A stretch of 39,948 nt of DNA from an uncultured Bacteroidales bacterium. GTDB taxonomy: Bacteria; Bacteroidota; Bacteroidia; Bacteroidales; Muribaculaceae. A model generated the notes under the pieces. That model ran no database searches and was not told the origin of the DNA. It saw only the letters and a list, made by a program, of their open reading frames with translations. The position numbers and the translations under genes were made by a program. Positions within the stretch are counted from its first letter, which is position 1; the number at the start of each line of letters is the position of its first letter. Positions 1 to 4,177 of the stretch are shown piece after piece. The stretch lies in the NCBI GenBank assembly GCA_902761475.1, contig CACWKM010000001.1, forward strand, positions 1-39,948, written 5' to 3'.

Positions 1-196
1 TGAAATTTGTAACGTGACATGGTATGTTGGTTTTCAATGAATTTCCTACTGCAAATTACCCATTGCGCACGAGAGAACGTGGTGGACCATGGTAGAGTGG
101 ACGGTATATGCCCCGTTTTTGAGGGGATTTCGACAAGATGATACTCGCAGCGTATACTCGGAAGTCCGGATATTCACCGTCACGGGGCTGTTCCGC

Positions 197-228
197 TTTG
201 CTCTTTCGCGGGATTGTCCTTATCTTTA
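197..228 (+). promoter_or_regulatory. Bacteroidetes sigma-A-type promoter (-33 TTTG / -7 TATCTTTA)
   Basis: TTTG at 197-200, 20-bp spacer, TATCTTTA at 221-228 (one mismatch to TAnnTTTG), 18 bp upstream of ATG 247. Confidence 0.55.
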
Positions 229-246
229 CATCGATAAAACGGGTTT

Positions 247-720
247 ATGGACATCATCATCTACGGCAGCCAGCACGGGTCTGCGAAACGATATGCCGAG
301 GGACTTGCTGAAAGGACAGGCCTCAAGGCCGTTGACTACAAAGAGGCCGATAGCCTAGGGCTGTATAATCGTATGGCCAAGTTGACCCATGGCCAGGAAC
401 TCTATGTCATCACCGTGGGTATGGTCGATCCGGAGGACCAAGCCTTCATCGGCCCGCTGCGGGAGGCTTTGAAAAAGCAGATTCCGCCGCAGATGTATGA
501 CGAGAACAGAATCTTCCACCTGCGTGGCGCCATTGACTACAGCCAGTTGGAACTGAAATACCGCATCTTGATGAAGATGATGTATTCGCAGGCTGCCAAG
601 CTGCCGGAGGAGAAACTGACCTCCGAATTCAAGGCCGTCCTGGCCACGTATGGCAAGAAGGTGGATTATGTGGATCTGGAGATGCTTCGACCGCTGACTG
701 CCGCTCTCAAACAAAGTTGA
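247..720 (+). CDS. Flavodoxin-domain protein (Flavodoxin_5/HemG-like), possibly internally deleted
   Basis: N-terminal IIIYGSQHGSAKRYAE FMN-phosphate loop, TVGMVDP and IFHLRGAIDYSQL motifs typical of this family. Confidence 0.75.
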   Translation: MDIIIYGSQHGSAKRYAEGLAERTGLKAVDYKEADSLGLYNRMAKLTHGQELYVITVGMVDPEDQAFIGPLREALKKQIPPQMYDENRIFHLRGAIDYSQLELKYRILMKMMYSQAAKLPEEKLTSEFKAVLATYGKKVDYVDLEMLRPLTAALKQS

Positions 721-740
721 AAGCCGATTCAGACAACAGT

Positions 741-986
741 ATGAACATCGATACATCGAATATGTGTTCGCATCTTCAGAAGAAACTCTTCGAAGATGAC
801 GGAGTCTATCATGGTCTTTGGACTTCCATGCAGGAGGACCCGGAACTGACTGCTGTCGTCCGTTCACGGCAACTTCACATCTACCGGAATGGAAAGAAGG
901 TGCTGGTACTGGCGGGGAAGGCCGCTCCCAAGGTCATCAGAGAAGATGCGCTGTGCGGGATGCTGCCAAAGGAAATCATGGGATAA
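741..986 (+). CDS. Small hypothetical protein
   Basis: Compact ORF (MNIDTSNMCSHLQKKLF...VVRSRQLHIYRNGKK). ATG 741 preferred over TTG 717, which overlaps the upstream stop. Confidence 0.65.
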   Translation: MNIDTSNMCSHLQKKLFEDDGVYHGLWTSMQEDPELTAVVRSRQLHIYRNGKKVLVLAGKAAPKVIREDALCGMLPKEIMG

Positions 987-1001
987 AGCCTATCTGACTA
1001 G

Positions 1002-1202
1002 ATGAAACTGAAGAAAAGAAAGTTCAAGTTCGCAGCGATATTTGGAATATGCTGGTTTGCCCTCCTGGTACTACTGGTTGACGGGATCCTGAAATTCCAG
1101 ACATTGGTCGACTATTTCGGCTCGTATGCCTTGGTGGAGATCACACTGCTGCTATTAGTCATTCTACCAACAGTGGCAGTATACATCTTCACGAAAGAAT
1201 AA
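1002..1202 (+). CDS. Small two-TM membrane protein
   Basis: Basic N-terminus followed by two hydrophobic stretches; fills the gap between neighbouring genes. Confidence 0.55.
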   Translation: MKLKKRKFKFAAIFGICWFALLVLLVDGILKFQTLVDYFGSYALVEITLLLLVILPTVAVYIFTKE

Positions 1203-1208
1203 CAAACA

Positions 1209-1226
1209 GATTAATCGGAATTTATC
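1209..1226 (+). repeat. Palindromic gene-boundary site GATTAA-TCGGAA-TTTATC
   Basis: Imperfect inverted repeat (extends to acagat...atctgt, 1206-1229) 6 bp after the stop at 1202; related to sites at 2073 and 2391. Confidence 0.65.
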
Positions 1227-1275
1227 TGTATCGCCAGCTCGTTTTGATAGAAATTAAATCCGCAGAGAACTCAGT

Positions 1276-2046
1276 ATGAGACATTTTATTATTTCAATCC
1301 TTCTCGTTTTGAATTCATGTCTGCTGTTCGCTCAAACAGTAGATGTTTGTGGTGTTGTTTATGATAAAGAAAACCTCTCGCCAATAAAGTATTGTTGGGT
1401 ATGTTCCTCTCAACAGAAGATTGTTTTTACCGATTCAGTAGGGCGATATACTGTTCCTGTTCCGATAAAAGGAAAGACCGAATTGGTATTTAAGTTAATT
1501 GGATATTATGATTCTGTTACTGAAATACTTCCCGGGGCAAAGGATGGTGACAATTACGATGTATGGATGGAACGAGATTCATTAGTGTTTGGACAGGAAT
1601 CCCAAAATGATAAGGTTGTGGCCGCGGCAATCGACGCAACCCCTCTATTGACTCCTTATGACGATAATCACTATTATTTCTTGCACAGTGCCGCCATCCC
1701 GGATGAATGCATAGAAATTATTATATATACACAGCCTCGGACTGCAAGGACTAAAAAGGAGCGAATGATATTCGGAGAGGAACCGTATTATTGTTCGTAT
1801 GTCGTTAGATTTCAAGATTCGAGCAGTGTAATAACCAATAAGTTATTCAAAGGAAGATTCTTAAGACACTTCAAGAAGATACCGGTAGAACAGTTGTCTA
1901 TCGAAGGCTTTCACCTTTTATATACCGATGTCGAGAAGAATGACCCTGTAGCACAGCGGGCGCTGCGCACGGTAAATGAGTATGGTCTGCGTTTCTACGG
2001 AAAACAAGAGACACCGGTGTTCTATTTCGTGAGAGAGGGGAAGTGA
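1276..2046 (+). CDS. Secreted protein with carboxypeptidase-regulatory-like (CarbopepD_reg_2) N-terminal domain
   Basis: Signal peptide, then VCGVVYDKENLSPI...TDSVGRY...LVFKLIGY pattern; visibly AT-rich. Confidence 0.7.
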   Translation: MRHFIISILLVLNSCLLFAQTVDVCGVVYDKENLSPIKYCWVCSSQQKIVFTDSVGRYTVPVPIKGKTELVFKLIGYYDSVTEILPGAKDGDNYDVWMERDSLVFGQESQNDKVVAAAIDATPLLTPYDDNHYYFLHSAAIPDECIEIIIYTQPRTARTKKERMIFGEEPYYCSYVVRFQDSSSVITNKLFKGRFLRHFKKIPVEQLSIEGFHLLYTDVEKNDPVAQRALRTVNEYGLRFYGKQETPVFYFVREGK

Positions 2047-2057
2047 CCAAAAATCAT

Positions 2058-2065
2058 TATCTTTG
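2058..2065 (+). promoter_or_regulatory. -7 promoter element TATCTTTG
   Basis: Exact TAnnTTTG match 24 bp upstream of ATG 2090. Confidence 0.55.
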
Positions 2066-2072
2066 AGAGTTA

Positions 2073-2090
2073 GATAAATCGTAATTTGTA
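2073..2090 (+). repeat. Palindromic gene-boundary site GATAAA-TCGTAA-TTTGTA
   Basis: Same motif and orientation as 1209-1226; its last base is the A of the ATG at 2090. Confidence 0.65.
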
Positions 2091-2395
2091 TGATTTGGTG
2101 GTTCATCTTTCTCGCAGTAATCCTGATTCTCATTGGGATAGCCTATCTCCGAGGCAAATGTGACGGGTTTATTGCCGGCTACAACACTTCTTCCCCCGAA
2201 AAGCAGAAGAAGTATGATATCAAACGCCTGCGGCTCATCGTAGCCTGTTTTCATTTTGCTCTGGCCGCCCTATTCTTCCTCTACCTGATGAAGAACGCTG
2301 ATTTAGCGGCAACAATCCATCTTTCCTGCGTGGCCATTCTGGCGGTCGCTGCCGTAGTTCTCGCCAATACCTGGGCGAAGAAAAGAGACAAGTAA
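2090..2395 (+). CDS. DUF3784-family small membrane protein
   Basis: TM helix, then GKCDGFIAGYNT...KKYD motif and two more TM helices, characteristic of DUF3784. Confidence 0.8.
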   Translation: MIWWFIFLAVILILIGIAYLRGKCDGFIAGYNTSSPEKQKKYDIKRLRLIVACFHFALAALFFLYLMKNADLAATIHLSCVAILAVAAVVLANTWAKKRDK

Positions 2396-2408
2396 ATTCT
2401 TATTTATC
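2391..2408 (-). repeat. Palindromic gene-boundary site, reverse orientation (rc GATAAA-TAAGAA-TTTACT)
   Basis: + strand AGTAAA-TTCTTA-TTTATC contains the DUF3784 stop (TAA 2393-2395) and ends 3 bp before ATG 2412. Confidence 0.6.
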
Positions 2409-2411
2409 GGC

Positions 2412-3107
2412 ATGGACATAAAGCATCATTTCATAGAGAAAGGCCAGGGAGATCCGCTTATACTGCTGCATGGAAACGGAGAGAACTGTGATTATTTCGC
2501 TGGGCAGATTGATGCGTTTGCCCAGTACTATCATGTCTATGCCCTGGACACACGTGGACACGGAAAAACACCGCGGGGCGACGCTCCGTTCACGATTCGG
2601 CAGTTCGCCGATGACCTTCTTGGCTTTATGGATGCAAATGAATTCGAGAAGGCGCATATCCTGGGTTTCTCGGACGGAGGGAACATTGCTATGGTCTTCG
2701 CGATGATGTACCGGGAGCGCGTGAGCCGGCTCATCCTGAACGGAGCCAACCTGGATGCAAAAGGTATCAAAAGCTACATACAGTGTCCCATTGAGATTGG
2801 CTATTGGTTTTCCAAACTGTTCGCAAACAAGAGCGCGGAAGCAAAACTGCATGCAGAGATGCTGGGACTGATGGTGAATGATCCGAATGTGAAGCCGGAG
2901 GAACTGTCAAGAATCCAGGCTAAAACGCTGGTCATTGCCGGAACCAAGGACATGGTTAAGGAAGAACATACACGACTGATTGCCAGCCATATCCCGGATG
3001 CTCAACTGGTCATTCTAGAAGGAAATCACTTCGTTGCCAGCAAATATCCGGATGCGTTCAACCGTGTAGTATTGGCTTTTTTGCGCGAAGAAGCAAAGGA
3101 GATATAA
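2412..3107 (+). CDS. Alpha/beta fold hydrolase
   Basis: LLHGNG oxyanion motif, DTRGHG, nucleophile elbow GFSDGG, GTKD acid, GNH histidine. Confidence 0.9.
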   Translation: MDIKHHFIEKGQGDPLILLHGNGENCDYFAGQIDAFAQYYHVYALDTRGHGKTPRGDAPFTIRQFADDLLGFMDANEFEKAHILGFSDGGNIAMVFAMMYRERVSRLILNGANLDAKGIKSYIQCPIEIGYWFSKLFANKSAEAKLHAEMLGLMVNDPNVKPEELSRIQAKTLVIAGTKDMVKEEHTRLIASHIPDAQLVILEGNHFVASKYPDAFNRVVLAFLREEAKEI

Positions 3108-3166
3108 TAACGCCGCTTATTTCCCCAAGGTCCGTAAGGGTGAATGAAAACATACAGCCAAATCCT

Positions 3167-4177
3167 CTATTTCTCGGATGTGGCAAGAACAGCTTTTACC
3201 GAATCCTTATACTTACGGGATACTGGGATCTCCTGGTTCCCGACGGAGACGACATCGGATGCCGTCAAGGCGGCATCAGCGATATTGACCAGGAATGACC
3301 GATGGACACGAAGGAAACCGGGGCCCAACGATTCTTCCCAAAGGCTGATGCCGGTCCTGTTGCGGTATTGCTGCCCATCACGCGTATATATCCAGACCTC
3401 GGAGTCTCGGGATTCAATGTAGAGGATATCCTCTTTTTTCAGAGTGATTTTCTTGTAGCCGGAGTTGAAAGTGACAGGACGTTCGGACGGATACTTGTTG
3501 TCAAGCCACTTCAAAAGCAGGAAATGCCCGTATGCGAGCAGGGCGAGAATGCCTGCAACAAAGACAGGATTCCAAAGCATGGATGGCATATCCCACCTGG
3601 TGTCACTGGCCCGGTCGATGACAAAGGCAACAAGCAACTGCAGCAGGTAGTAGACCAGCACGACCGCCGTCCCCAAGCCCAAACTCAGCGCTGGCGACCG
3701 AAGGATGCCCGACGCCAGCGACGGCACCGCCAGCGACACGCCCACCATGAGGGCAAAGCCCTGCATCACACACGACAAACCAATGAGCGCCGTGAGAATC
3801 TTCGTCTCGTTCACCGTGTGGTCGTCGAACAGGTTCTCGCGACGACGCGTGGAAAACATGTTGCGCACAAAGTTCTCTAGATATTTGTAACCGGTGCGAT
3901 AACTCAGCACCACCGCCATGGCCACCAGCATCATGAGTCCCATCACGACGGGGCTGCGCAGCGGACTGGGCGGCACCGGTGTGGGCGCGGCACCGGCCGG
4001 CATCTCCATCACCGTCGCCTCCTCCCACTGGTCGCGCGAGGGCAACGGCGTGGTCACGCCATGTCCAAAATCGGTGACGTAGTGGGGTGAGATGATGAGT
4101 TGCGCACTATCGACAACGGCGGCATGGGCCGTATCGACAGCAGCAGGCGTGGAGGGTACTGGTGTGGTGGCGGGCAT
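3167..4177 (-). CDS. Chimeric ORF: N-terminal DUF4271-like membrane protein fused in frame to TM + LytTR DNA-binding domain
   Basis: N-half has RRRENLFDDHTVNET and TM helices (DUF4271-like). C-terminus has ILYIES...FLRVHRSFLVN...IPVSRKYK (LytTR). Codon style changes near 3630. Confidence 0.65.
   Translation of the reverse strand: MPATTPVPSTPAAVDTAHAAVVDSAQLIISPHYVTDFGHGVTTPLPSRDQWEEATVMEMPAGAAPTPVPPSPLRSPVVMGLMMLVAMAVVLSYRTGYKYLENFVRNMFSTRRRENLFDDHTVNETKILTALIGLSCVMQGFALMVGVSLAVPSLASGILRSPALSLGLGTAVVLVYYLLQLLVAFVIDRASDTRWDMPSMLWNPVFVAGILALLAYGHFLLLKWLDNKYPSERPVTFNSGYKKITLKKEDILYIESRDSEVWIYTRDGQQYRNRTGISLWEESLGPGFLRVHRSFLVNIADAALTASDVVSVGNQEIPVSRKYKDSVKAVLATSEK

Follow-up and report, generated by a model that had tools for sequence, protein, structure and literature searches.

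Site-bounded gene modules in a Muribaculaceae contig and their site family in gut bacteria and phages

Genes and sites of the array

The window analyzed here, a stretch of 39,948 nucleotides from an uncultured Bacteroidales bacterium of the Muribaculaceae, is the entire contig C1 (CACWKM010000001.1) of genome G000 (2.16 Mb, 232 contigs, 88% complete), and it begins at the contig end, with no sequence further left. Gene content and promoter type suggest a Bacteroidales-like host. Positions 247-3107 hold six genes in one orientation, and the measured spacers of 20, 15, 73, 43, and 16 bp agree with the initial annotation, which described six co-oriented, tightly packed genes bounded by short palindromes. 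Three of these palindromes, at 1209, 2073, and 2391, belong to a site family whose usual pad consists of a promoter, a site A (spacer TCGGAA), a cargo gene, an inverted site B (spacer TTGGAA), and a terminator. The features are as follows, with the weight matrix score and shuffle p-value given for each site.

233..249, plus strand: doubtful type-A site in decayed form (1 bp lost) that runs into the gene 1 ATG; score 4.8, p=0.011
247..720, plus strand: gene 1, flavodoxin-domain protein (PF12724)
716: claimed site, unsupported; score -0.5, p=0.075
741..986, plus strand: gene 2, 81 aa, without a Pfam match; adjoins genes 1 and 3 in other contigs
982..998, no strand: claimed site, unsupported; best score about -7, p=0.50
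1002..1202, plus strand: gene 3, 66-aa hydrophobic protein whose neighbors vary widely among homologues
1209..1226, plus strand: type-A site GATTAA-TCGGAA-TTTATC; score 26.9, p<0.001; breakpoint
1276..2046, plus strand: gene 4, CarboxypepD_reg-like (Pfam score under the curated cutoff), G+C content at third codon positions 0.39; flanked by two direct A sites
2049..2072, plus strand: promoter-like piece TATCTTTG, 5' of site 2073; locus L220 has a similar flank
2073..2090, plus strand: type-A site GATAAA-TCGTAA-TTTGTA, running into the gene 5 ATG; score 22.5, p<0.001; breakpoint
2090..2395, plus strand: gene 5, DUF3784 (PF12650), a single-gene module with A and B sites facing inward
2391..2408, minus strand: site GATAAA-TAAGAA-TTTACT in the type-B position, overlapping the gene 5 stop; score 17.3, p<0.001; breakpoint
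2412..3107, plus strand: gene 6, alpha/beta hydrolase (PF00561); 3' end without a site (boundary shuffle p=0.67)
3167..3630, minus strand: 3' part of a LytTR-domain gene (PF04397), part of the left block
3630..3641, no strand: junction of the array block with the host backbone (DUF4271-LOG-lgt), bridged by no listed contig piece

The weight matrix was trained on 226 intergenic sites of other genomes, with the window left out; because these training sites were gathered with the motif itself, the core positions of the matrix are selected. The shuffle test used 1000 shuffles per boundary. The matrix scores and shuffle p-values together indicate that three sites are real, that the site at 233 is doubtful, and that those at 716 and 982 are unsupported. 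Only 7 positions in the 2.16 Mb of G000 score 16 or more, and sites 1209, 2073, and 2391 are three of them.

All six palindromes quoted in the initial annotation are present at the coordinates given there, with the overlaps of stop codons and ATGs that it described, and the three strong ones stand above shuffled boundary DNA (p<0.001). The statement that most boundaries carry a version of the motif holds for these three of the six, is unsupported for 716 and 982, and is doubtful for 233. The motif had also been said to be missing from backbone gene boundaries, and this is confirmed: among the 577 boundaries of G000 between co-oriented open reading frames of at least 100 aa, only two score 10 or more, both in the array, site 1209 being outside this set because gene 3 is short. 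The proposed form GATAAA-N6-TTTATC is right in its arms and wrong in its free center, the spacer being conserved, with the consensus GATAAA-T(C/T)GGAA-TTT(A/G). Plain repeat finding in the window returned only the 1209/2391 pair, and Rfam gave no match in six loci, the window block among them.

Site 233 is preceded by the promoter-like TATCTTTA, and we take TATCTTTG at 2049..2072 to resemble the Bacteroidetes -7 promoter motif. The sequence at 982 could at most be what remains of a type-B site on the gene 2 stop codon; a B-type site lies upstream of the gene-3 homologue in 2 of 12 cases.

A site family bounding different cargo

The pattern RAYWAATYSSRATTTRY matches in 75 of 133 genomes of the genus, with about 180 matches (including hsdS sites and some double counts from the two strands) versus 9 for the reversed control. 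At least one exact copy of the site is held by 38 of 81 relatives and by none of the controls, and some Oscillospiraceae-like genomes hold many (160 in G153, 89 in G174, and 27 in G163). Amid chance matches inside genes, the site was found in Bacteroidales, Oscillospiraceae, Christensenellaceae, Ruminococcus, Clostridium, and one Akkermansia metagenome-assembled genome, and it is also present in viral and metagenome contigs. The collection scan gave 121 stretches from 4 of 64 parts, for an estimated total of about 2000.

The two spacer types differ in their position relative to genes. TCGGAA sites lie before a gene start in 55 of 100 cases and before a gene end in 13, and TTGGAA sites before a gene start in 12 of 99 and before a gene end in 55, with kin in both sets not independent. 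In the 25 commonest classes listed, inward-facing pairs combine A with B 32 times, A with CTGGAA 8 times, and two sites of the same type 5 times; modules with outward-facing sites or direct repeats also occur. Pairs among the 226 sites share only the upstream flank in 116 cases, only the downstream flank in 48, and both in 3, where deduplication had removed most pairs sharing both. Same-left pairs have identical first two spacer bases in 133 of 140 cases and same-right pairs in 206 of 209, compared to a baseline of 0.47, and part of this agreement could come from selection for expression.

Different cargo is found in identical pads, and the same cargo in different backbones, with the homology breaking at the sites. 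At a phage tail locus, four cargos (875, 271, 410, and 721 bp) lie between near-identical flanks in 9 loci, two of which are the same contig, and a related phage has no pad. A ThuA cargo shared by a phage and an element with relaxase and ParB genes is 98.8% identical up to the site. The cargo kinds include GNAT, NUDIX, SMR, cupin, SnoaL, hexapeptide acetyltransferases, and a CAT-fold protein; a serine beta-lactamase-fold protein also adjoins sites, and a DUF3784 gene different from gene 5 is the cargo of a phage pad.

The cargo of phage locus L071 (L071:3457-4015) is 96% identical to the lincosamide resistance gene lnu(C) on 10 plasmids and sits in a full pad, with a promoter and an A site before it and a B site after it. 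Two plasmid records (L876 and L877:1491-2031) carry lnu(C) behind an ISSag10 transposase. The match between L071 and these records starts within the A site and stops at the B site, and both sites persist in decayed form in ISSag10, from which we infer, by comparison of these records, that lnu(C) was probably a module of this system before its capture by ISSag10.

Some further loci are recorded here as side observations. A hexapeptide-repeat acetyltransferase, which we presume to be vat-like, starts right at an A site behind at least five upstream flanks in Bacteroidales (L175, L191, L212, L270, L327, and L332). At L213:7619-7711 and L214:4884-4975, a short palindromic repeat of Bacteroidales forms a gene-free module with a B-type site on either side in direct orientation, and at L629:3-4647 two integrase genes converge, with an A site after each, the two sites facing one another. 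In a complete Clostridium genome, 9 of 17 near-matches fall within 100 kb (G149:C1:2.43-2.53 Mb), a region with no recombinase. A complete Wukongibacter genome (G150:C1, L582-L590) contains about 40 dispersed copies of a separate repeat, GACAAACCCGAATTT, beginning GACAAACCYGAATTTC, which is probably a miniature inverted-repeat transposable element; the GACAAACCCGAATTT repeats were set aside as another repeated element and not counted as sites of the family.

For the window itself, contigs from eight gut metagenome runs, mostly bovine, were aligned to the array, and the best-supported pieces were compared. Loose ends and piece ends among the pieces listed fall at 1208, 1213, 1222-1226, 2087, 2091, and 2395-2396. 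At site 1209, loose ends lie at 1208 and 1222-1224 and pieces begin at 1213; at site 2073, loose ends lie at 2087 and 2091; and at site 2391, contigs stop or start at 2395-2396. Homology in the rumen contigs ends at these three sites with a change of neighbors, as the cassette interpretation would have it, and not at 716 and 982, which several contigs cross without a break. In the 233 region, one contig diverges at 244 and a 1-bp longer allele occurs in 2 of 4 runs. Gene-3 homologues diverge at the gene 3 ATG rather than at 982, and several upstream neighbors diverge at 2049, the start of the promoter-like piece, where there is no site. Loci L024 and L027 carry one gene, followed by GATAAATCGGAATTT and then by differing genes.

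The array ends at the join at 3630-3641, where an open reading frame on the minus strand (3167-4177) fuses the DUF4271 start with the LytTR domain and is a product of the join. Contigs continue from here into other DNA in 3 of 4 runs, and among the pieces listed a bridging one is found in none of the four; one contig spans 2395-3641 and then continues into different DNA. The DNA right of the join is common across the genus; of the part on its left, genes 2 and 3 alone turned up, in 11 of 132 genomes. We regard the join as a likely assembly chimera or a junction specific to the strain and, since it is a probable mis-join, another rumen bacterium may be the source of the array. Pad ends also occur in G000 itself, with a promoter and an A-type site on contig C217 and a terminator and a B-type site on contig C190.

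Proposed exchange mechanism, recombinase, and alternative explanations

That a site-specific module system exists is almost certain. On balance, we favor a system of A/B modules swapped in trans by a tyrosine recombinase, most likely of the TvrR clade, with crossover at A and B. The crossover at A would join two molecules and the crossover at B would resolve them with the cargo swapped, the exchange passing through a cointegrate or circle. Since the spacers must match, each site type would recombine solely with its own kind, A with A and B with B, so that the one-base difference between the A and B spacers would keep the cargo gene facing the promoter, and DNA between direct A sites, such as gene 4, would be excised. 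Applied to the window, this would make gene 5 a module running from A to B and gene 4 one that lies between two direct A sites; genes 1-3 would be fused into one block, with inner sites that decayed or were never present. The earlier reading of the palindromes as recombination joints with tyrosine recombinase architecture is retained for 1209, 2073, and 2391, which have the 6-6-6 layout of arms and spacer, and its integron-like layout is not.

Same-armed sites at TvrR-clade loci make this clade the best enzyme lead, since tyrosine recombinases generally require matching, not particular, spacers. In two loci of the genus, same-armed sites with the spacer TCGCAA lie in hsdS segments adjoining a 329-aa tyrosine recombinase, and a Ruminococcus locus has the spacer TGATAA. 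Across the 329-aa recombinase family, a TAAA-N6-TTT site is repeated with a locus-specific spacer in 66 of 75 loci (0 of 75 when shuffled), which fixes the 6-6-6 reading, and some of the spacers at TvrR-clade loci, TCGCAA and TCAGAA, are one base from that of site A. Two family members 67% identical to the query appear as TvrR homologues (60.6% and 58.5%) in Table S7 of PMC7672463, and PMC6265443 describes TvrR as shuffling hsdS segments via circles at repeats of about 18 bp. The action of a tyrosine recombinase with spacer matching is probable, and the assignment to the TvrR clade is tentative.

Type I restriction-modification hsdS shufflons with a TvrR-clade recombinase are also present on many gut viral contigs (L432-L511 and L885-L992), where the shufflon sites are encoded as I-N-x-N-L or D-K-S-K-F codons.

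The recombinase is not in the window, as the initial annotation had noted. G000 has two tyrosine recombinase genes (PF00589), one passing the XerD cutoff and the second of no assigned type. No recurring recombinase in cis came from a phmmer search with five recombinases over 1190 proteins, from TvrR-clade and resolvase profiles run on 330 site-bearing loci, or from a Pfam search of 207 site-adjacent proteins (150 of 233 cluster representatives plus 57 of 62), the hits being scattered integrases of the carrier elements. Among 60 tyrosine recombinase loci fetched from ten Clostridia genomes, none carries a cassette-type site, and hsdS sites with the spacer TCGGAA gave 7 viral matches, none near a TvrR gene.

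Several results weigh against a TvrR-driven exchange at A and B. A profile search found a TvrR-clade gene in none of 330 site-bearing loci (1.99 Mb), G000 has no such gene, and a TvrR match (E<=1e-30) is confined to 11 of 133 genus genomes, compared to 75 with sites. The spacers TCGGAA and TTGGAA are used by no TvrR locus fetched. Selection for expression, and not spacer matching, may underlie the polarity of the sites. The gene 4 module is absent from one contig through a joint from 1212 to 2077 between the two direct sites, found in 1 of 4 runs, where the short side spans 30 letters at 90% likeness, so that this single contig may come from another organism. Boundaries of homologues score 10 or more in only 1 of 8 cases for gene 2, 3 of 12 for gene 3, and 0 of 5 for gene 6, and for genes 1 and 5 the 371 genomes searched gave 1 and 2 distant homologues, all without sites; since most homologues of the window genes lack sites, the well-supported modules are limited to genes 4 and 5. 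Finally, the 334 matches in G153 mostly bound mini-elements containing repetitive extragenic palindromic (REP) sequences, with outward-facing sites (L396-L415); the spacer type of these elements follows neither flank (157/296 and 4/14), and in 17 of 20 compared genomes the locus they occupy lacks such modules, which a double crossover does not explain.

The outward-facing G153 elements and the loci lacking them look like transposition into YAAATTTR, and they keep alive the explanation that the long half-site (CC-RRTTTATC-G...) is a transposon end, with a transposase inserting at YAAATTTR, duplicating AATT, and catching cargo between inward ends. The common ends of outward-facing mini-elements of different REP families fit this explanation, as do the 160 and 89 exact sites in two genomes and the AATTT fixed outside the long arm in 52 of 58 G153 ends, where conservation stops one base beyond. 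AATT stands on both flanks, and the empty alleles of the glgA locus are only 73-78% alike in their flanking genes, so that alignment is not possible. The cassette loci argue otherwise, since there the spacer type follows both flanks, and the repeated REP-doublet mini-elements of G174 (L572-L581) hold whole inward-facing sites and have outer ends of their own. No DDE transposase was found among the 207 site-adjacent proteins, the high-copy genomes being incomplete, and no end-to-end junction in five genomes or the viral collection, where transient circles would not assemble. We consider this origin unlikely. HUH (Y1) transposases are present in the four genomes searched, one of them between sites in G153.

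It is quite unlikely that the sites are extra dif-like targets of the host XerC/D or of an XerS-like enzyme, comparable to the Acinetobacter pdif sites. A housekeeping enzyme would account for the lack of a recombinase that moves with the sites, and one common variant matches difSL (PMC2965235) at 19 of 26 positions by eye; the difH core is similar. Against this, the right arm of the canonical dif-like site of G000 (C173:1492) is unlike that of the cassette site, no site adjoins XerC-, XerD-, or XerS-like genes in the loci checked, and the same site occurs in two phyla.

A serine recombinase acting on the 8-2-8 palindrome GATAAATY-GG-AATTTATC, with crossover at the central GG, is very improbable. 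Site B is a perfect palindrome of this form, and in two elements the distance from an A site to a large serine recombinase gene is 67 and 507 bp, but no strong site lies near 30 genus resolvase loci (of 81 matches; one score of 13.7), G000 has no resolvase match, the variable unit in the same-armed TvrR sites is six bases, and the C/T base follows both flanks. That the sites are regulator-binding sites or AT-rich chance matches in an ordinary island is hardly credible: A sites do lie just downstream of promoters, and 716 and 982 are at chance level, but the location of B sites on stop codons, the loss of homology at the sites, and near-zero controls speak against it, and for 1209, 2073, and 2391 it is already contradicted.

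Relation to known systems and significance

The site-bounded modules are closest in layout to the Acinetobacter dif modules (pdif, XerC/XerD). In both (PMC13141974 and PMC6449649), genes lie between inverse asymmetric sites with 6-bp spacers, and the inward, outward, and direct types match the C, D, and CD modules of PMC13141974. In both, single modules are replaced with matching spacers (here by sequence comparison, and excluding the G153 mini-elements), no recombinase is encoded in cis, and resistance genes are among the cargo. Two spacer types in opposite orientations around the cargo fit such a module exchange. The differences are that the site described here is not a XerC/XerD dif, the dif-like site C173:1492 of G000 having a different arm, and that at least two phyla carry it, on chromosomes as well as in phages and conjugative elements, whereas PMC6449649 calls dif modules characteristic of Acinetobacter. 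There are also two fixed spacers here and many there, and the pads here supply a promoter and a terminator.

The TvrR hsdS shufflons (pneumococcal tvr, PMC6265443; clade 2 invertases, PMC7672463) have sites of about 18 bp with TAAA/TTTA arms and a six-base spacer of the Y...AA type, all as here; their clade spans ten phyla, and both excision and inversion are proposed for it. The shufflon sites lie inside hsdS beside the recombinase gene, whereas those described here surround whole unrelated genes, with no recombinase nearby and with other spacers. The hallmark of such a shufflon, a recombinase gene with hsdS segments, is absent from the window, as is the TvrR-clade gene from the 330 loci mentioned above.

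Integrons are recognized by IntI, attI, and attC, the last with R''/R' boxes in a hairpin of about 55-140 bp. The modules share with integrons and with clusters of attC sites lacking integron integrases (CALINs) small promoterless single-gene cargo (GNAT, NUDIX, SMR, cupin, and CAT-like), an upstream promoter, and stacked arrays. The comparison to an integron-like layout nevertheless fails on the absence of attC and, in the 88% complete G000 with its one untyped PF00589 gene, of intI, on site 2391 being inverted relative to 1209 and 2073, inward pairs also prevailing elsewhere, and on the two spacer types. The sites had rightly been separated from attC: there is no R-box pair in positions 1-3300 on either strand, and the spacers of 15-73 bp leave no room for one. 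XerS/difSL and XerH/difH have a similar core with a stronger left arm (PMC2965235, PMC5357621, and PMC2731167); there the sites are single, chromosomal, and usually beside their gene, and here they are multicopy and mobile.

Literature searches with the site strings (full text) and by topic, covering titles and abstract openings and few subscription papers, found no description of this system. It is a real and apparently undescribed variant of site-bounded module exchange that is unusually broad. We tentatively suggest that it might represent one plug standard in gut anaerobes, in which two fixed spacers and a site borrowed from shufflons would allow double-crossover exchange among phages, conjugative elements, and chromosomes of several phyla by resident TvrR-clade recombinases, and which might be the source pool of the ISSag10 lnu(C).

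If this is true, the system would let small accessory and resistance genes pass between Bacteroidota, Bacillota, and phages of these hosts with no need for integrons or insertion sequences, and would account for part of the patchy small-gene content in gut genomes. Mobile genes can be searched for by these sites, which adjoin lnu(C), acetyltransferases of the vat-like and cat-like kinds, and a protein with a serine beta-lactamase fold. A minimal two-spacer site that is functional across phyla would furthermore be an engineering tool for gut anaerobes.

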